61,470 nt of DNA from Rhodocyclaceae bacterium (GCA_017553285.1 JAFZMK010000085.1:1-61470), one strand, 5' to 3'; positions 6,412-55,151 are shown, counted from the stretch's first letter. Numbers and translations are program-made. The notes: generated from the letters alone by a model not told the origin.

Positions 6412-6939
6412 ATGAAAGCAGCGGGCGCGTTGCGCGACGAAATTTGCTATCCCTTCCTCTACGAGACTTCCTGGCTGTGCGATTACGAGGTCGCCACCGA
6501 TGAGCTATGCGGGCTGATTGGCTCGGCGCTGTCGCTGCTGCCGCCCGAAATGGCGGACATCGCCGCTGATCTCGACCGCCTGCAACCGCTGGCGTTTCAC
6601 CTCAATGGCTCATTGCGCGGGCGGCTGGCGGTGACTGATGCCGACGTGGACTGGCTGCGCGCCCGGCTGGAACACTACCGCGAAGAAGTGCGCGATGCAC
6701 ACGCGGGCTTTATCCTGCCGCGTGGCGCGCTGCCCGTGCCGTATTTGTATCAGGCCTGTTCGGCGGCGAAACGCGCGGTGCGGCTGATGGTGCGCATCGA
6801 GGCGGAAGGGCGGGAAATTCCCCCCGTGCTGCCGCGTTTGTGCAATCTGATGGGCAATTTTTTCTTTGTATTGGCGCGCGTCATCAACCGGCGGCGCGGC
6901 GAGGCGGAAATTCCCTTTGTCAGCAAAAGTTACGGCTGA
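6412..6939 (+). CDS. Cob_adeno_trans (PduO-type ATP:cob(I)alamin adenosyltransferase)-like protein without the canonical N-terminal motif
   Basis: AGGAGA lies upstream of the ATG. EVATDELCGLIGSA...LQPLAFHLNGSL...FILPRG resembles the helical-bundle core of PduO-type adenosyltransferases. I see no TKxGDxGxT motif, and only 24 nt separate it from tldD. Confidence 0.5.
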   Translation: MKAAGALRDEICYPFLYETSWLCDYEVATDELCGLIGSALSLLPPEMADIAADLDRLQPLAFHLNGSLRGRLAVTDADVDWLRARLEHYREEVRDAHAGFILPRGALPVPYLYQACSAAKRAVRLMVRIEAEGREIPPVLPRLCNLMGNFFFVLARVINRRRGEAEIPFVSKSYG

Positions 6940-7646: not shown

Positions 7647-10075
7647 CAGGCAGGCTGCGCCGGTGCGCCGCTTGGTGCGGCGGCAGGCTGCGGGCGGGGC
7701 GCGGTTTGCTCGGCTTCAAAGCGGGCGAGCACGCGGTTGCGCCCGGCGTGTTTGGCGCGGTAGAGCATGGCATCGGCTTGCTCAATCAGCTCGTTGACGT
7801 TGCCGTTCGCGCTGCCCGTAGCATCGCCAGAGACGATGCCGATGCTGACGGTGATGTGTTCGTAGGGCGATTTTTCGTGCGGGAGCTGGAGCGCCTCCAC
7901 CGCCGCGCGGATGCGTTCGCCAAAAAGGGCGGCCTGAGGATGTTCGCACTGGTACCAGAACAGGATGAATTCTTCGCCGCCATAGCGACCACAGAAATCA
8001 TAGGGGCGCTGCCCGGCGTGCTTGCCGATGACTTTGCCGACGGCAGCCAGCACCGCATCGCCCGCCGCGTGCCCGTAGTGGTCGTTATAGTTTTTGAACC
8101 AGTCGACATCAATCATCGCGGCGGTGAGCTGATTGCGCGCGGCAGGCAGCAGCGGGCGGATGCTGGCAAGGTAGTTGTCCAGCCCCTGCCGGTTCGCCAG
8201 GCCGGTGAGCGCATCTTGCTGGGCGAGGAATTTGAGTTTTTCCTGCTTGACGAAGCTATCCAGCCGCCGGTGGTCCTGAATGGCGCTAAGCGCCGCGCCC
8301 ATGCAATTGACGAGGACAAACGAAATCAGCAGGTGCGACAGGTTGCCGGTGGTGGGCAGGAAGAGGATGCGGGGGACGAGATAGGCGAGCGTAATCGTCC
8401 AGCCGACCACGCACGCCACGCCCCAGTGCTGCGAGCCGACCATGTAGCTCTGGAAGAGCAGGAGCATCAGCAGCTCGTAGGGAATGTCGACCTGATGCTG
8501 GAAGGAGAGCCAGCCGGCATAGCAGATAATCAGCCCGTAAGCGAGGATGAACAGCGGCAAGATGCGCCAGGACAGGCGTTGCGCCCATTCGTGGCGCGTC
8601 AGCGCGATGCCCGCGCACAGCAGCGGCGTGAGGAAAAAGGTGTGCGAGCTAAGCAGCAAGCGGCTGGCGGGGGCATCGGGCAGCACGAAGTTGGCAGCAA
8701 TCAGCGTGAGATTGATGATCATGGTGATAATCAACATGCTGACCAGTTGCGGCTGCTCGATGATGCCGCGCAAGCTGGCAAAACGGGCGCGGTCTTCGCG
8801 GGTGATGGCGGTCTCGCGCGGCGTGAGGGCGGCGATGTAGGCACCCGGCGCAAAGGGCTTGGCACCGGCAGGCACGGCGGATTGCGCATCCTTGCCCGCG
8901 CCGCATTCGTGCGTGCACACCAGATTGCGCCCGCTTTCCTTGGCCAGATAGAGGGCGCGGTCGGCGTTGTCCAGCAGCGTGTGGCGGTCTTCGGCGCAGG
9001 TTGGCACGTGGCTGGTAATGCCGACGCTGACGGTCACCTTGCCGTGGTGGCTGTCTGCGTGTTCGATGGCGGTGGCTTCGACGGCATGGCGCAGCCCTTC
9101 GCCCAGGGCGAGGAGGTCTTGCTGGGGATGGAACCACACGGCAATGAATTCTTCGCCGCCATAGCGGGCGACGTAATCGGGCTTGGGCGAGGCGTGGCGG
9201 GCGATGGCGTGCGCGACGGTGGTGAGCACGTTGTCGCCAGCGGCGTGCCCGTAGCGGTCGTTATAGCGTTTGAAATGGTCGACATCAATCATCGCCACGG
9301 CCAGCGAGGCCTGTTCGCGCGTGGCCTGACGAACCAGGCGCGCGAGCAGCGCCTGCAAGTCGCGGCGGTTGGGCAGCCCGGTAAGCGGGTCGTGCCGGCT
9401 TTGTTCCAGAAAGGTGTTGTTGATGAGAAAGTGGTGGCGGGTGACACGCTCCAGCGTGTGGCTGGAAAAGAGGCTTACCATCATCGCCAGCGCGATATAG
9501 ATGGTGTGCATCCGGCACAGCGTGGCATCGGGCTGGTAGAGCCATTCGGGCACCGCCAGCAAAATGGCGGAAAGCAGGCAAGGCCACACGGCATAGCGCC
9601 ACGGAATGCCGCCGACCAGCGGCGTAAAGAGGATGAGCAGCAGCAAAAGCTGGTAGGAGTGCAAATAGCCGTAATGGCCGGAAACCCACTGGCTGGAACA
9701 CAACATGCAGACCGCCAGCATGGAATACAGGGCGGTGAACATGGGCATTCGCGGCGTAAAACGCGGCAGGAAGGACGCCACCATCCACGCCAGCCAGCAC
9801 AGGAAAAAGAGGGGAATACGGCTGATGATGGGGAAGGTGGGGACGTGTGCGGGCAGGTGGCGCAGGTCTGCCAGACAGAGGAAAAAGCCGGCGTACAGGG
9901 TAATGCCCAGTGCGTAGCGGGTCAGCTTGCGGTCGCGCTCGACGAGGTGAAGCAGGTACTGGTCTTCCAGTTCCGGGTTTTTGAAGCGCAAATTCCACCA
10001 CGACTCGACGGGCGCGAGCCGGGAAGACTGGCTGGGAAGACGCCATTGCACGGCGTCTGTGCTGGGGGCGTCCAT
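7646..10075 (-). CDS. Membrane diguanylate cyclase, duplicated architecture 6TM-GGDEF-6TM-GGDEF (paralog A)
   Basis: 809 aa. RYGGEEF is encoded at 9146-9160 (GGEEF, aa 306-310) and 7967-7981 (aa 699-703). Both domains keep IDVDxFKxYNDxYGHAAGD and AKxxGRN. Six hydrophobic helices precede each domain. Confidence 0.9.
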   Translation of the reverse strand: MDAPSTDAVQWRLPSQSSRLAPVESWWNLRFKNPELEDQYLLHLVERDRKLTRYALGITLYAGFFLCLADLRHLPAHVPTFPIISRIPLFFLCWLAWMVASFLPRFTPRMPMFTALYSMLAVCMLCSSQWVSGHYGYLHSYQLLLLLILFTPLVGGIPWRYAVWPCLLSAILLAVPEWLYQPDATLCRMHTIYIALAMMVSLFSSHTLERVTRHHFLINNTFLEQSRHDPLTGLPNRRDLQALLARLVRQATREQASLAVAMIDVDHFKRYNDRYGHAAGDNVLTTVAHAIARHASPKPDYVARYGGEEFIAVWFHPQQDLLALGEGLRHAVEATAIEHADSHHGKVTVSVGITSHVPTCAEDRHTLLDNADRALYLAKESGRNLVCTHECGAGKDAQSAVPAGAKPFAPGAYIAALTPRETAITREDRARFASLRGIIEQPQLVSMLIITMIINLTLIAANFVLPDAPASRLLLSSHTFFLTPLLCAGIALTRHEWAQRLSWRILPLFILAYGLIICYAGWLSFQHQVDIPYELLMLLLFQSYMVGSQHWGVACVVGWTITLAYLVPRILFLPTTGNLSHLLISFVLVNCMGAALSAIQDHRRLDSFVKQEKLKFLAQQDALTGLANRQGLDNYLASIRPLLPAARNQLTAAMIDVDWFKNYNDHYGHAAGDAVLAAVGKVIGKHAGQRPYDFCGRYGGEEFILFWYQCEHPQAALFGERIRAAVEALQLPHEKSPYEHITVSIGIVSGDATGSANGNVNELIEQADAMLYRAKHAGRNRVLARFEAEQTAPRPQPAAAPSGAPAQPA

Positions 10076-49683: not shown

Positions 49684-50826
49684 TTACAGGGATTTGAACC
49701 ACATGATGAGCGAATCCCACAGGCGACCAAACCAGCCGGCGAGTTCGACTTCGTTGAGCGCCACCACCGGCCAGGAGCCGATGGTTTGCCCGTCCAGCGT
49801 GAGGGTGAGCGTGCCGATTTCCTGCCCCTTGCGAATCGGGGCGAGCACGGGCTGTACGCTGGTCAGACGCGGTTGCAGCTTGGCGGCTTCGCCCTTGGGC
49901 AGGGCGAGAATCAGCGGTTTTTCAAACCCGGCGGCCACTTCGTTGGTCGCCCCTTTCCAGACCTGAAAACGCGCCAGAGGCTGGTCAGCGTCATAGACCT
50001 TGGCGGCTTCGTAGAACTGGAAGCCATAGTTGAGCAGTTTGAGCGATTCTTGCGCGCGGACGTTTTCGCTGCTGGTGCCCAGCAACACCGAAATCATGCG
50101 GTGATTGTTGCGGTTGGCGGAGGCGACCAGACAATAACCGGCGCTGTTGGTGTGACCGGTCTTCATGCCGTCGACGGTGGCATCGCGCCACAGCAGCAGG
50201 TTGCGGTTGGGCTGGGTGATTTTGTTGTAAGTAAATGATTTTTCGGAATAATATTTGTAGCCTTCGGGATAGTCGCGAATGATGGCGGCGGCCAGTTTGG
50301 CGAGATCTTTCGCGGTGGTGTAGAGCTGCGGGTCAGGCAGACCGTTGGCGTTGGTGTAGTGGGTGTTTTCCAGCCCCAGACGCTTGGCACCCTGGTTCAT
50401 GAGGTGCACGAAGGCTTCTTCGGTGCCGGCGACCAGTTCGGCCAGCGCCACGCAGGCATCGTTGCCGGACTGGATAATCATGCCACGGATGAGTTGCTCG
50501 ACCGTCACCGGCATTCCGGGCTTGATGAACATGCGCGAGCCTTCCTGCCGCCAGGCGTGTTCGGAAACATCCACCTGCTGGTCGAGCTTGATTTTGCCTT
50601 CCTTGAGCGCGCCAAAGACGATGTAGGCGGTCATCAGCTTGGTGAGCGAGGCAGGTTCCAGCCGCTCATCGCCTTTTTCGGTGACGAGAAACTGGTTCGT
50701 CGTCTGGTCGTACAACACCCAGGCTTTGGCCGCCAGCGTCGGCGGCGGCACTTGCGCGGCAGCAGCGGCGCAGGAAAAGAGGGCAAACAGCGAGGCGAGG
50801 ATCAGGCGCTTGAAAACAGCAATCAT
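49684..50826 (-). CDS. dacC: D-alanyl-D-alanine carboxypeptidase (PBP5/6 class)
   Basis: ATG at 50826. Signal peptide, then SxxK in EPASLTKLMTAY, SGN in IIQSGNDA, KTG in MKTGHTNSAG. Confidence 0.9.
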   Translation of the reverse strand: MIAVFKRLILASLFALFSCAAAAAQVPPPTLAAKAWVLYDQTTNQFLVTEKGDERLEPASLTKLMTAYIVFGALKEGKIKLDQQVDVSEHAWRQEGSRMFIKPGMPVTVEQLIRGMIIQSGNDACVALAELVAGTEEAFVHLMNQGAKRLGLENTHYTNANGLPDPQLYTTAKDLAKLAAAIIRDYPEGYKYYSEKSFTYNKITQPNRNLLLWRDATVDGMKTGHTNSAGYCLVASANRNNHRMISVLLGTSSENVRAQESLKLLNYGFQFYEAAKVYDADQPLARFQVWKGATNEVAAGFEKPLILALPKGEAAKLQPRLTSVQPVLAPIRKGQEIGTLTLTLDGQTIGSWPVVALNEVELAGWFGRLWDSLIMWFKSL

Positions 50827-50882
50827 GGCGGATGGTCGTCGGTTCAGAAAAAGGCGCAATGATAACGCGATTGGCGCGCAGC

Positions 50883-50975
50883 TCAACGCACAACAACGAA
50901 TGGTTGCAAACCCAGCGTCTGGCCGATGGAGGGAATATGCACGTGCGTGTGTACGCTGGCTTGTTCGGTGCGTAC
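50883..50975 (-). pseudogene. Orphan relic copy of the rlpA 3' end (last 30 codons plus stop, with a 13-codon deletion)
   Basis: Translates VRTEQASVHTHVHIPSIGQTLGLQPFVVVR*. The end of functional RlpA (52630-52761) reads VRTEQAGANTRVQVGPFASRDEALRHLPTIGQTLDLQPFMVER*. Confidence 0.75.
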
Positions 50976-51040
50976 CATTATGAACGAACGCGCCCCGGGC
51001 AAGGATGCCCGCAAACTGCGTTTTGTGATTGAGTAAGCCC

Positions 51041-52570
51041 ATGACGGAAGACGAACTCCTGCAAATTCTCGCGCGTGGTGAAGACAGCCAGCACCAGTTC
51101 AAACGCGACTTCAACAACGCCGATGCGCTGGCGGCAGAGCTGGCGGCGCTGGCCAATAGCGTTGGCGGTCAGATTTTGATTGGCGTTGCGGACGATGGCC
51201 AGCCCGTCGGGCTGACGCCGCAAGATATTGCCCGCCTGAATCAACTGCTGTCCAACGCGGCCAGCCAGCATGTGCGCCCGCCCATCAGCCCGAACAGCCA
51301 AAACATTCACACCGACCAGGGGCTGGTTTTGCTGGTCGATGTGCCGCTGGGTCTCAACAAGCCTTATATGGACTTGCAAGGGCGCGTGTGGGTAAAACAT
51401 GGTGCCGACAAGCGCCATGTGACCGCCCGCGAAGAGTTGCAGCGCATGTTTCAGCAGTCTGGTCTGCTGCAAGCCGATCAGGTGCCCGTGCGCAATACGA
51501 CGTGGGATGACATTGATGAGCGCGCGTTCGCCCGCTATGTCGAGCGCCGCTTCAAAGACGGGCAGCACGCGCTGCCGCTGTCCAACGTGTTTGAAAACCT
51601 GCAACTGGCCAGCGACGGCGTGCCCAATCTCGCGGGCATGTTGTTGTTTGGCAAATACCCCGAACGGCATTTGCACGTTTGCATGATTACTGCGGTTTGC
51701 TTTCCGGGCGTCAAACTCTCGGATAGCCGCTACCTTGATAGCGAAAACATCCAGGGCACGCTGGAAGAGCAGTTTCAACGCGGCATGGGTTTTATCAAGC
51801 GCAATCTGCACCATGTGCAAGGCGCGCAAGGCTTCAACAGCGTGGGCTTGCTGGAAATTCCCGAAGAAGCATTCGTTGAACTGCTGGTCAATGCGCTGGT
51901 GCATCGGGATTTTTTTACCAATGCCACGGTTCGCCTGCTTATTTTTGCTGACCGGGTCGAAATTATCAGCCCCGGTGCGCTGCCCGACAGTTTGACGCGC
52001 GAACAAATCCTTGCAGGGCGCTCCAACCGCCGCAACAAGGTGCTGGCCGAGCACGCCGCCCACATCCTGCCCTATCGCGGTCTGGGCACCGGCATTCCCC
52101 GCGCATTGGGCGTCTGGCCGAGAATTGAGCTGATTGATGAACCCGAAGGCAATCAGTTCAAAGCCGTACTGTGGCGAACGGATACCGGGCAAGTCACCGG
52201 GCAAGTCAGCGAACAGCCAGAGTCGAAGCCAGAGTTACAGCCAGAGTCACAGCCAGAGTCACAGCAAGAGCCGCAGCCAGAGCGGCATCCAGAGCCTCAG
52301 TTAGAGCCAGAGTCGCAGCCAGAGTCGCAACCGGAACGGGTGCTGAGGCTGCTGGAATCCAGCGAGATGGGCAAGGCGGAAATTTCGTTGGCTTTGGGGC
52401 AACGCGAGGTTTCGGGTTCGCTCAACAAGACTATCCGTCAATTGCTGGCGCTCAGACAGATAGAAATGACCCGACCAGACGCGCCAAACAGCCGTTTGCA
52501 GAAATACCGCATCACGGACTATGGGCGGGCGTTGCTGGCCAGCAAAAACAACACCAAGCCAGAGCGCTGA
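51041..52570 (+). CDS. AlbA_2 (Schlafen-like 'divergent AAA') + HATPase_c_4 (RecG C-terminal-like) + C-terminal wHTH-like protein, function unknown
   Basis: ATG at 51041 (the track start at 51029 is a TTG). EDSQHQFKRDF...LAALANSVGGQILIGVADDG is the AlbA_2 pattern. EAFVELLVNALVHRDF...IFADRVEIISPGALP is the HATPase_c_4 pattern. A PE/SQ repeat linker follows, then a basic tail. Confidence 0.75.
   Translation: MTEDELLQILARGEDSQHQFKRDFNNADALAAELAALANSVGGQILIGVADDGQPVGLTPQDIARLNQLLSNAASQHVRPPISPNSQNIHTDQGLVLLVDVPLGLNKPYMDLQGRVWVKHGADKRHVTAREELQRMFQQSGLLQADQVPVRNTTWDDIDERAFARYVERRFKDGQHALPLSNVFENLQLASDGVPNLAGMLLFGKYPERHLHVCMITAVCFPGVKLSDSRYLDSENIQGTLEEQFQRGMGFIKRNLHHVQGAQGFNSVGLLEIPEEAFVELLVNALVHRDFFTNATVRLLIFADRVEIISPGALPDSLTREQILAGRSNRRNKVLAEHAAHILPYRGLGTGIPRALGVWPRIELIDEPEGNQFKAVLWRTDTGQVTGQVSEQPESKPELQPESQPESQQEPQPERHPEPQLEPESQPESQPERVLRLLESSEMGKAEISLALGQREVSGSLNKTIRQLLALRQIEMTRPDAPNSRLQKYRITDYGRALLASKNNTKPER
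52214..52336 (+). repeat. In-frame tandem repeat (unit about cagccagagtcR) encoding QPESKPELQPESQPESQQEPQPERHPEPQLEPESQPESQPE
   Basis: Read directly from the sequence. It is a coding low-complexity linker, not a CRISPR array. Confidence 0.9.
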
Positions 52571-52629
52571 ACCAAGCCCGCAATCGCGGCACCGGCGCGG
52601 TTTGCGTTGCGCGTTTGCGCGGGGCGCGC

Positions 52630-53973
52630 TTAGCGTTCGACCATAAATGGTTGCAAATCCAGTGTCTGGCCGATGGTGGGCAGGTGACGCAGGGCTTCGT
52701 CGCGGCTGGCGAAGGGGCCGACTTGTACGCGCGTGTTGGCACCGGCTTGTTCGGTGCGCACGAGGCTGGCCAGTGCGCCCAGCGATGCGCGGGCGCGGTT
52801 GGCGAGCGCTTGCGCGGCTTCGGGCGAGGAGAAGGCGCCCAACTGGATAAACGTGCCGCCTTGCGCGGCGGGCAGTGCTGCGCCCGCCATGCCCGCCATC
52901 GACGGGGCAGGCGGGGTGTAGGGCACCGGTGGGGCGGCTGGCGCGGGCGGGGTGATGGGGGTGAGTGAGACCGCCGAGGGTGCGCTGGATACGGCAGGCG
53001 CGGGGGATTCCGGCGGCAAGGTGGTGATCTGGAGGGACTGCGGCGCGTCTGCCGGGGCATTCATCGGCGCGGGCGCGGGGATGGGCGGCGCGATGGGGGT
53101 AGGCGCAACCGGCGCGTTCATAACCGGCGCGGCGGGGGCGGTGGCGGGCAGGGTGGTGGTGCGGATGGAGCTGGGTGCAGCGGCAGTGGTTTCTTCCTGC
53201 GGCAAGGTGGCGGCGATAAAGGGGGCGTCTGCCAGCGGGTCGTCCGCCGCGCCCAGGGGTTCGATTTCGATGCTGGCAGGCGGACGGGTAGGGGTGGGCG
53301 GCAGCGAGGCGATGAAGGGGTCGGGCGGCGGGGCGACGGGCGCGGGCTGCGCTGTGCCGACGCTGCGCCCGGCGTTGTTGGCGAGGCGGATTTCGTCGGG
53401 CAGGATGGCTTCGACTTCCACCGGCGCGCTGCCGCTGTTGACGTAGCCGAGGCGGTAGGCGGCAACATAGGACAAGTCCATGATGCGGCTGTGCAGGAAG
53501 GGTCCCCGGTCATTGACGCGCACCACAACGCTGCGCCCGTTGTTGAGGTTGGTCACACGGGCGTAACTGGGCAGCGGCAAGGTGGGGTGGGCGGCGGTCA
53601 TGGCGAACATGTCGTAAGGCTCGCCGCTGGAGGTGGCTTTGCCGTGAAACTTTTTGCCGTACCAGCTTGCCGTGCCGCGTTCGCGGTAGGGGCGAAAATC
53701 GGTGAAGGGCACAAAGTGCTGCCCCATTACGGTGTAGGGGCGCAGGGTGTTGCGGTTGAGCGGTTCGATGCGCGGCACGGCATCGGGCACTTTGTCGAGA
53801 TCGACGGGGATGTAGTCTGCCGGGCCGTCATCCTTGTAGTAACCGCCGCCGCCGCTGCTTTTGCCGCCGCCGGTGCGCGAAGGGGTGCTGCCGCAGGCGG
53901 TGAGCAGGGCTGCGGCCAGCAGCGCCAGAACGGTGGGGTGCAAGAGACGGGTGCGGGCGGCGGCGAAAGTCAT
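52630..53973 (-). CDS. rlpA: Septal ring lytic transglycosylase RlpA (lipoprotein; DPBB + SPOR domains)
   Basis: ATG at 53973. Lipobox LLTAC. DPBB region GTASWYGKKFHGKATSSGEPYD...AHPTLPLPSYARVTNLNNGRSVVVRVNDRGPF. Long Pro/Ala linker. SPOR-like end FIQLGAFSS...RVQVGPF. Confidence 0.9.
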   Translation of the reverse strand: MTFAAARTRLLHPTVLALLAAALLTACGSTPSRTGGGKSSGGGGYYKDDGPADYIPVDLDKVPDAVPRIEPLNRNTLRPYTVMGQHFVPFTDFRPYRERGTASWYGKKFHGKATSSGEPYDMFAMTAAHPTLPLPSYARVTNLNNGRSVVVRVNDRGPFLHSRIMDLSYVAAYRLGYVNSGSAPVEVEAILPDEIRLANNAGRSVGTAQPAPVAPPPDPFIASLPPTPTRPPASIEIEPLGAADDPLADAPFIAATLPQEETTAAAPSSIRTTTLPATAPAAPVMNAPVAPTPIAPPIPAPAPMNAPADAPQSLQITTLPPESPAPAVSSAPSAVSLTPITPPAPAAPPVPYTPPAPSMAGMAGAALPAAQGGTFIQLGAFSSPEAAQALANRARASLGALASLVRTEQAGANTRVQVGPFASRDEALRHLPTIGQTLDLQPFMVER

Positions 53974-53978
53974 GATGG

Positions 53979-55151
53979 CTAACCCTGTGCGATGAGGCGG
54001 CTGTGGTGGCGGATGTTCATCAATAGTCCGACGGCAATGCACAAGGATACAAGAGAAGTGCCGCCATAGCTGATGAAGGGCAGCGGTACGCCTACGACCG
54101 GCAAAATGCCGCTGACCATGCCCATGTTGACGAAGGCGTAGGTGAAGAAAATCATCGTCACCGCGCCTGCCAGCAGTCGCCCGGCAAAGGTGGTGGCGGT
54201 GATGGTGATGGTCATGCCACGACCAATGAGCAGCACGTAGAGCGCAATCAGCACGAGCACGCCAACGAAGCCGAATTCTTCGCACAGCACGGAGAAGATG
54301 AAGTCGGTATGGCGTTCGGGGATGAAGGCCAGGTGGGTTTGCGTGCCTTGCAGCCAGCCTTTGCCCCACATGCCGCCCGAGCCGATGGCGATGGTCGACT
54401 GGATGACGTGAAAACCGCGCCCGAGCGGGTCTTGCGAGGGGTCGAGCAGGGTGCAGATGCGCTGCTTTTGGTATTCGTGCAGCACGACCCAGTCAAATTC
54501 CGGCGCGCAGAGGATGTCGCCAAAGCCGATGATGGCCAGCAGCCCGCCCGCAGCCAGCAGCATCGCCGGGATGATGAGTTTCCAAGATAGCCCGGCGAAA
54601 AAGATGACGTACAGACCGGCGGCGGTGACCAGCAAGGCGGTGCCCAGGTCGGGCTGCATGGCAATGAGACCGACGGGAATGCCCAACAGCACGAAGGCGA
54701 TGAGGAAGTCGTGCGCGCGCAGGGCGTTTTCGCGTTGCTGGAAATACCATGCCAGCGCCAGCGGCACGGCCAGTTTCATCAGTTCGGAAGGCTGGATGCG
54801 CGCCACGCCAATATCCAGCCAGCGCCGCGCGCCTTTGGAAACATCGCCAAAGAGGGCGACGGCAATCAGCAACAGCACACCCAGCAGATAGAGCATCGGC
54901 GAGATGCGCACGATATGGCGCAGCGGAATGACGGCGGTCAGCAGCATCAGCGACAGCGCCAGCGCGATATGGCTTTGCAGCGATTCGACGCGCTCGGGAC
55001 CGGCGCTGACCAGCATGGTCCAGCTAATGGCGAGCAGCGCGAGCACGACACCGAACAGCCACAGGTCAGTCACCCGCACCAGCGTGCGCAGCCACGCCAT
55101 GGGGGTGAAAAAGCGGGTTTCGTCGGAAAAGGGGAGCGTGTTCGGACTCAT
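53979..55151 (-). CDS. mrdB: Peptidoglycan glycosyltransferase RodA (SEDS family)
   Basis: RIQPSELMKLA...GDILCAPEF...TDFIFSVLCEEFGFVG...LPFISYGGTS. Confidence 0.93.
   Translation of the reverse strand: MSPNTLPFSDETRFFTPMAWLRTLVRVTDLWLFGVVLALLAISWTMLVSAGPERVESLQSHIALALSLMLLTAVIPLRHIVRISPMLYLLGVLLLIAVALFGDVSKGARRWLDIGVARIQPSELMKLAVPLALAWYFQQRENALRAHDFLIAFVLLGIPVGLIAMQPDLGTALLVTAAGLYVIFFAGLSWKLIIPAMLLAAGGLLAIIGFGDILCAPEFDWVVLHEYQKQRICTLLDPSQDPLGRGFHVIQSTIAIGSGGMWGKGWLQGTQTHLAFIPERHTDFIFSVLCEEFGFVGVLVLIALYVLLIGRGMTITITATTFAGRLLAGAVTMIFFTYAFVNMGMVSGILPVVGVPLPFISYGGTSLVSLCIAVGLLMNIRHHSRLIAQG

Follow-up and report, generated by a model that had tools for sequence, protein, structure and literature searches.

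In the catalog of prokaryotic Schlafen proteins (Perez Taboada et al., bioRxiv 10.1101/2025.07.24.666596), 34% of the 5,930 members carry a histidine-kinase-like domain and 19.2% combine it with an added helix-turn-helix; 69.6% are encoded near defense genes, about 30% of the catalogued set lies outside defense islands, and one member, which has an immunoglobulin-like sensor, proved on testing to be a transfer RNA (tRNA) nuclease (tRNase) activated by phage. Proteins joining a Schlafen domain to a minimal histidine kinase and a winged helix have been described as a "backup effector" closely linked to bacteriophage exclusion (BREX) systems in at least 1017 taxa (NAR 2026, PMC12839542), and TrlG, from the temperature restriction locus of Photorhabdus, restricts growth at 36°C, a restriction relieved by loss-of-function mutations (PMC7554251). 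Here, we analyzed a stretch of 61,470 nucleotides (nt) from a Rhodocyclaceae bacterium (GCA_017553285.1, JAFZMK010000085.1:1-61470; called the window throughout), in which a gene of this architecture (51041-52570, plus strand) stands between the cell-wall genes rlpA and dacC. The original prediction for this locus, made from the sequence alone, had described one plus-strand gene breaking the rlpA-dacC junction, and this was confirmed by open reading frame (ORF) listing and Pfam: the gene is the only one between rlpA and dacC, and its orientation opposes that of the whole cell-wall gene block. The same prediction had called proteins with AlbA_2 and HATPase_c_4 domains uncharacterized, a view made outdated by the class descriptions and the TrlG phenotype cited above. 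Our best explanation of the locus, to which we give a probability of roughly 0.6, is that an approximately 1.65-kb fragment of a type-3-like BREX operon was captured at rlpA-dacC by illegitimate recombination with a 132-nt target duplication, which would leave a Schlafen-type effector stranded there.

Domains and provenance of the inserted gene

The 509-residue product begins with an SLFN_AlbA_2 domain (PF04326; 51080-51421, plus strand), matched with an E value of 1.2e-21 and 77.9 bits against a cut-off of 25.3 over 117 of the 118 profile positions, and continues with HATPase_c_4 (51926-52108, plus strand; E = 6e-11) and a Fic-like_C winged helix (52334-52516, plus strand; E = 6e-9), all from Pfam. 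A histidine-kinase-like ATPase fold and a helix-turn-helix fused to the Schlafen domain are the features by which one class of prokaryotic Schlafens is recognized, and the protein is a further member of that described class. Its homologues number more than 3000 and are annotated as RNA-binding, DNA-binding, Fic-family, or RecG-like proteins; NCBIfam holds no model for the protein, and its PADLOC matches, all weak, were to Argonaute-associated proteins, in their Schlafen-like regions. The AlphaFold2 model, with a mean predicted local distance difference test (pLDDT) score of 74.7, resolves into three folded modules, the Pro/Glu/Gln-rich linker being disordered (pLDDT below 50). When the whole protein was searched against PDB structures, the separate domains not being searched, 3LMM, 2KYY, and winged-helix proteins were returned and no Schlafen structure. 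The best structural match was 3LMM, an uncharacterized protein and the only solved relative, with further matches to MarR/PadR-type winged helices and weak ones to the PDK/QseC kinases. At the catalytic-motif site (codons 14-21; window 51080-51103), the protein reads E14-D-S-Q-H-Q19-F-K21, departing from the published E-x4-(E/D)-x-K. The form E-D-S-x-H-Q-F-K recurs in 117 of the 118 nearest homologues in which the motif was located, and the Q is invariant in a 39-sequence alignment. No partner ORF for a type II toxin-antitoxin pairing was found in the insert. By analogy with characterized Schlafens and TrlG, the protein is most likely a stress- or phage-triggered growth-arresting effector, and in BREX loci it would back up the main system.

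The DNA immediately upstream of the gene carries a 3'-end remnant of the BREX gene brxC/pglY (50977-51036, plus strand), namely, 19 codons, IMNERAPGKDARKLRFVIE, followed by a stop codon. This segment aligned with six brxC/pglY 3' ends in a multiple alignment, scored 56 against the brxC end of the BREX locus L130 (z score of 18.6; reached by 0 of 500 shuffles), and was 80% identical to the last 20 BrxC residues (1228-1247) by tblastn. The same arrangement is seen among the closest homologues of the gene (63-79% amino acid identity): in 12 loci (L084-L090, L095, L124, L130, L131, and L135), which are all of those checked with enough upstream sequence, brxC ends a few nucleotides upstream of it. 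In the gene tables of P0002, P0005, and P0018, the gene likewise follows brxC, and in P0002 and P0005 a pglX-type methyltransferase comes directly next. PADLOC identified BrxF, BrxC (E = 0), PglXI, and BrxHI among the L130 neighbors, with the HEC-01 and HEC-02 candidate systems embedded in the locus. Because a brxC end lies upstream and the closest homologues stand directly after brxC, the insert is read as a fragment of a type-3-like BREX operon; the neighborhood survey also bears out the predicted link of the gene family to defense, with the closest homologues in BREX loci. The content of G+C at third codon positions (GC3) is 0.69 in the inserted gene and 0.77 to 0.83 in neighboring genes, a difference that points to foreign composition of the gene, and its nearest named homologues come from Accumulibacter, a member of the same family.

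Beyond the 60-nt remnant, tblastn with BrxF, BrxC, PglXI, and BrxHI detected no further BREX genes in the 61-kb window, so that of the core set of such a locus (brxC/pglY, pglX, pglZ, and brxF/brxH together), only the last 20 codons of brxC are present. The 59-nt spacer on the right (52571-52629) gave no significant match to brxC ends, the native intergenic region, or the left spacer, nor to what follows the gene in five loci, BREX or other. Among homologues outside BREX loci, an upstream brxC remnant was strong only in the window and marginal in L133 and L101 (z about 4). Two other sources were considered and set aside: a transferred unit of one brxC repeat plus the gene, as arranged in L130, was dropped, the brxC homology in the window beginning 10 to 15 nt further upstream than the L130 repeat, and a prophage origin was rejected, only 4 homologues above 45% identity being found on IMG/VR contigs. 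The host BREX loci are themselves of mixed make-up. L130 (9562-15669) is a mosaic BREX type-3 locus with a truncated pglXI (524 amino acids), then the HEC-02 and HEC-01 candidate systems and a partial brxHI, and on the P0002 contig the first part of the Schlafen gene overlaps a Phd/YefM antitoxin gene, with a second paralogue 6.5 kb downstream.

Distribution of the insertion and the duplicated rlpA end

Scanning with DacC, taking one genome per species, yielded 80 loci. The nearest, L001, is from a goat-rumen Rhodocyclaceae metagenome-assembled genome; its DacC, the product of the gene downstream of the insertion, is 96% identical in amino acids, with about 88 to 89% nucleotide identity, and the next-nearest locus is only 66% identical. 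In L001, the rlpA stop (9942) and the dacC start (10001) are separated by a 58-nt spacer, and the insert is absent. In about 60 of the 80 loci, dacC has RlpA immediately before it, which agrees with the conserved rlpA-dacC junction of the original prediction, and a homologue of the inserted gene was found within 10 kb in none of the 80. Judged from these comparisons, the insertion is lineage-specific and consists of a single gene, as expected of the accessory islet that had been proposed.

The last part of rlpA is present on both sides of the insert. On the right is the functional rlpA 3' end (52630-52761, minus strand), i.e., the last 43 codons plus the stop and the intact copy of the duplicated segment; on the left is a decayed orphan copy (50883-50975, minus strand), which carries a 39-nt internal deletion. 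Aligned across this 39-nt gap, the two gave a local score of 57, far above chance (18.0 ± 2.5 with a maximum of 28 in shuffles; n = 500), so the match pointed out by the original prediction stands. The best match of the left spacer across the window, self-overlapping pieces excepted, was the rlpA end, and a repeat search recovered the same two blocks at 79% identity. Since the similarity past the rlpA stop codon was non-significant by itself (z of 0.6 to 1.6), the demonstrable duplication comprises the last 132 nt of rlpA, 93 nt of which survive in the orphan.

A three-way alignment placed the orphan and the dacC-side sequence colinear with the intergenic region and dacC of L001, including the native rlpA-dacC intergenic region at 50827-50882 (minus strand), whereas the sequence after the intact rlpA stop was non-colinear; therefore, the orphan is the displaced native rlpA end. 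Among 90 comparable sites, unique changes numbered 12 in the orphan, 8 in the intact copy, and 5 in L001. The 8 changes of the intact copy, absent from both the orphan and L001, include three amino acid changes within the last 16 codons; outgroup comparison showed these changes to be derived and nothing further. Polarizing the two rlpA copies by the outgroups L002 to L005 was abandoned, as only the M of "...QPFMVER" was shown to be derived and a foreign copy was not singled out. Contigs of two other assemblies, L081 and L082, which are identical to each other in their shared region and 98.2 to 99.1% identical to the window over aligned stretches, share both the insertion and the orphan copy with it; because they do, the structure is real, not an assembly artifact, and older than the strain split.

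Entry route and recurrence of the footprint

We propose that an ancestor of this Rhodocyclaceae species took up about 1.65 kb of foreign DNA from a type-3-like BREX operon as a linear fragment, which would have held the last 20 brxC codons, the Schlafen-type gene, whose place in operons of this kind is between brxC and pglX, and 59 nt. The fragment would have landed at rlpA-dacC by illegitimate recombination without an element-encoded recombinase. The left crossover probably fell within a short imperfect homology, roughly 5 to 8 nt, between the rlpA end (reverse strand) and brxC; at this junction (GTTCG...ACC, 50964-50976), the similarity to brxC seen when the L130 and L088 brxC ends are aligned pairwise extends into the end of the rlpA copy. 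The last 132 nt of rlpA would have been duplicated in the same event, either by template switching during replication (reviewed in PMC2621351) or by the joining of breaks at staggered positions on sister chromosomes, both of which are possible; a literature search on the mechanism behind such duplications returned nothing specific to bacteria. Because of this duplication, rlpA is intact on one side and dacC keeps its native upstream sequence on the other, and this is probably why so tight a block of cell-wall genes can tolerate an insertion.

The footprint was not confined to rlpA when we compared the 400 nt upstream with the 400 nt downstream of the gene in 44 homologue loci. The outcome was bimodal, 10 loci reaching z scores of 15 to 26 and the remainder staying below 3.5. 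The rlpA 3' end (132 nt) is duplicated in the window, L081, and L082; the 5' start of parC (65 nt) in L133, L134, and L101; the brxC 3' end (51 to 63 nt) in L130, L131, and L087; and a part of brxC further upstream (48 nt or more) in L088. Since the duplications in this family thus lie at three unrelated targets (parC, brxC, and rlpA) and range from 48 to 132 nt, they do not fit one att-specific recombinase. In a control set of 748 ordinary ORFs taken from the 80 dacC loci, a score of 40 was reached by a single one, a sporadic ATPase_2/DUF234 gene (1063-2526 within L019:843-2620) flanked by a 55-nt direct repeat whose copies are 93% identical and end in a stop codon. The footprint of a single accessory gene with a duplicated end of a neighboring gene is therefore enriched, and it is bound to neither one target nor one gene family. 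Its cause may be survivorship, only insertions that regenerate the neighboring gene being tolerated, or a specific process.

Two of the homologue loci have a structure of their own. At the parE-parC junction of L133 (6530-9501), there are two single-gene insertions, each with a separate target duplication: a yhcG/DUF1016 gene is bracketed by the parE 3' end plus the intergenic region (6530-6642 versus 7799-7887), and the Schlafen gene by the parC 5' start (7912-7976 versus 9434-9501). In L132 (7700-10900), the homologue P0012 (about 70% identity) forms an islet beside purE-purK and a thioredoxin gene, amid debris that includes an 82-residue ClpB_D2-small fragment, a 76-residue SAICAR synthase fragment, and, at 7746-7842, tandem repeats of 21 nt; the search for a bracketing repeat at this islet was negative.

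The strongest competitor, though an unlikely one, is a Campbell-type integration, in which a small circle holding the gene and an rlpA 3' end, freed from a related genome by recombination between flanking repeats, would have integrated RecA-dependently via roughly 130 nt of homology, the intact rlpA end being donor-derived. A 132-nt repeat is above the known minimum for homologous recombination, the brxC-end repeats flanking homologues in BREX loci could release such circles, and the 8 changes of the intact copy are missing from both the orphan and L001. Set against L001's own 5, however, these 8 changes are no significant excess; outside this species, the gene was found beside rlpA in no genome that could have been the donor, and the first duplication is shifted to another genome and left unexplained.

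It is quite improbable that the insertion is ancestral to a wider group and that L001 lost the gene by recombination between the rlpA-end repeats. A direct-repeat deletion of that kind leaves no scar, and the event is not recent, the orphan copy being already 21% diverged and carrying a deletion; however, the gene is absent from every other rlpA-dacC locus surveyed, its GC3 is still below the host level, and the rlpA end of L001 lacks the mosaic pattern of two copies.

Very improbable, too, is the mechanism that the original prediction had favored, a remnant of a larger site-specific integrative element that inserted at the rlpA 3' end with a replacement end and later lost its integrase. Its attraction lies in the direct repeats derived from the target 3' end, with the intact copy adjoining the cargo (93 and 132 nt, 79% identical in aligned blocks), and in a 14-nt imperfect inverted repeat near both insert ends (CGCGCCCCGGGCAA at 50989-51002 and TTGCGCGGGGCGCG at 52615-52628). 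Repeats as good arose in 4 of 2000 shuffles and in 0.8% of random window pairs, and this one is only suggestive as an element signature; its left arm is the point where the brxC remnant leaves the brxC consensus. Against such an element, the left repeat adjoins the coding end of brxC and no element DNA, and the non-gene DNA amounts only to 60 nt plus 59 nt, which would require a near-exact deletion. The same footprint also occurs in this gene family at parC and brxC with other repeat lengths. The original prediction had itself reported neither an integrase nor a partner gene, and our searches agree: within 6 kb, no integrase or transposase was found in the three assemblies (Pfam on L081, with flanks colinear with L001), no tRNA or transfer-messenger RNA was found in or near the insert, and Rfam gave no match. 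An insertion sequence or transposon fares no better, there being no transposase, a sole inverted-repeat candidate lying 13 nt inside the left end, and a duplication as long as 132 nt. Of the original interpretation as a whole, the lineage-specific islet, the displaced native end, and the defense link have held up, whereas the integrating-element mechanism has not. Hardly any weight falls on the last alternative, that duplicative single-gene insertion is actively driven, whether by the Schlafen-ATPase-winged-helix gene or by a host process peculiar to cassettes of this kind, since the bracketing repeats in 10 of 44 homologue loci (4 apparently independent events) versus 1 of 748 ordinary genes, and the union of nuclease-like, ATPase-like, and DNA-binding domains in one protein, are countered by the same footprint around unrelated accessory genes (yhcG in L133 and the ATPase_2/DUF234 gene in L019), by variable repeat lengths and insert boundaries, and by 34 homologue loci without repeats.

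Several points nonetheless weigh against the capture of a BREX fragment that we prefer. The right-hand 59 nt were traced to no source, and only one boundary of the putative fragment is tied to BREX. Site patterns fit an in-place duplication and a donor-derived intact rlpA end equally well, and the physical mechanism of the duplication is inferred. That the footprint recurs elsewhere, at further targets and beside different accessory genes, could point to a specific mechanism and not to rare accidents that selection has filtered. As to the stranded effector, the nuclease activity of the clade is not assured, because Q replaces the second acidic residue of the published motif, and the gene may still be working in this strain, where the ORF is intact and the ratio of non-synonymous to synonymous substitution rates (dN/dS) against BREX-embedded homologues is 0.1 to 0.19.

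Speculatively, and with little confidence, one may suppose that an unrecognized recombinase-independent duplicative process, such as template switching or a circle acting via 50 to 130 nt of homology, brings single accessory or defense genes, here the Schlafen gene, yhcG, and an ATPase_2/DUF234 gene, into tight housekeeping junctions of these Betaproteobacteria while regenerating the interrupted gene end. If this is true, essential operons would be permissive landing sites, and repeat-flanked genes could excise and move on. Target duplications of 48 to 132 nt around accessory genes offer a small testable lead on the entry of non-mobile genes into compact operons. The locus studied here bears a scar of horizontal transfer, genuine but of a fairly ordinary sort, and its one unexplained point is that long target duplications recur.

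State of the gene, its surroundings, and known systems

Since the dN/dS against BREX-embedded homologues is 0.1 to 0.19, the protein has been constrained for most of its history. Compared with L081, however, the gene shows 8 synonymous and 5 non-synonymous differences, versus 37 synonymous and 0 non-synonymous ones in dacC, rodA, and mrdA together (Fisher's exact test, p of about 6e-4). One of the 5 is a change from CAG to TAG at 51452 (L081:5965) that turns Q138 into a stop codon and splits the gene of L081 into a 137-residue AlbA_2 piece and a 360-residue remainder, and 5 of the 13 codon differences fall within a strain-variable 12-nt tandem repeat (52203-52347, plus strand; about 9 overlapping units by repeat search) that encodes the Pro/Glu/Gln-rich linker by which the ATPase-like domain is joined to the winged helix. 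The gene evolves under relaxed constraint here and is inactivated in the sister strain, and its loss appears to be under way in the species as a whole. A promoter scan of the plus strand found no sigma-70-like promoter upstream of the gene.

On the dacC side, the neighboring gene encodes a dacC/dacA-type D-alanyl-D-alanine carboxypeptidase of the PBP5 family (49684-50826, minus strand; Pfam Peptidase_S11, E = 3e-85, and PBP5_C). The promoter scan placed a candidate dacC promoter, by consensus match, at the sigma-70-like site TTGAGC-16-TATCAT (50886-50859, minus strand), whose -35 element overlaps the stop codon of the orphan copy. In L001, 25 nt separate this TTGAGC from the -10 element, so the good -35/-10 spacing is specific to the insertion-bearing lineage. 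On the other side, the GC-rich 59-nt spacer between the convergent stop codons is predicted to fold as a strong hairpin (-38.5 kcal/mol for 80 nt). It is followed by rlpA (52630-54021, minus strand), with a DPBB_1 lytic-transglycosylase-type domain and SPOR by Pfam, colinear with rlpA of L001. Two strain differences were observed here: a 15-nt stretch immediately 3' of the rlpA stop is tandemly duplicated in L081 (window 52615-52629 versus L081:7140-7170), and an indel in the Pro/Ala-rich linker of RlpA (window 53105-53168) accompanies a called length of 479 amino acids in L081 and 463 here. The same gene order is found in Escherichia coli (mrdA-mrdB-rlpA-dacA-ybeD-lipB).

This locus offers a clean, datable case of a defense gene leaving its parent system, in which the remnant of brxC marks the Schlafen gene as one that left a BREX operon by itself for a housekeeping locus. 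The sister-strain comparison shows the aftermath, relaxed constraint and a knockout, and bears on the origin of "orphan" Schlafen genes outside defense islands. The conserved Q in the catalytic motif marks the commonest BREX-linked clade as a biochemical priority.

As an insertion, the locus resembles genomic islands whose site-specific recombination targets the 3' ends of genes or tRNAs in having direct repeats derived from the target 3' end and an intact target gene; it differs in lacking a recombinase and a defined att core, in its single-gene cargo edged by operon debris, and in a repeat length that varies between events. Comparable, too, are the "minimal mobile elements" of Neisseria and homology-facilitated illegitimate recombination, where strain-specific genes lie between conserved genes without mobility genes and with microhomology at the junctions; we know of no description of 50- to 130-nt flanking target duplications for them. 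As a protein, it has the homologous N-terminal nuclease-type domain (Pfam SLFN_AlbA_2) in common with the eukaryotic tRNases SLFN11/13 and SAMD9/9L, in which that domain is fused to a helicase or STAND-type module, whereas here it is joined to a histidine-kinase-like fold and a winged helix and lacks the second acidic residue. The likeness to TrlG (PMC7554251) rests on domain positions, AlbA_2 and HATPase_c_4 lying at residues 14-128 and 298-365 in TrlG and at 14-127 and 296-356 here. TrlG is likewise sporadic and inserted between housekeeping genes, polA and dsbA, but belongs to a three-gene operon with trlF and trlR, whereas the window gene has no partner. With the histidine-kinase/helix-turn-helix class of catalogued prokaryotic Schlafens (10.1101/2025.07.24.666596), it has in common an N-terminal PF04326 domain followed by a histidine-kinase-like ATPase fold and a helix-turn-helix, and its homologues lie in defense loci; the window copy, however, lies outside any defense island, and the part of the catalog drawn on here names no protein of this domain class among those that confer defense. 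Another described counterpart is the BREX-embedded backup effector (PMC12839542), which has the same architecture: the closest homologues stand between brxC and pglX, and the window copy keeps the brxC end, but it now stands alone, in the opposite orientation, inside a cell-wall gene block.

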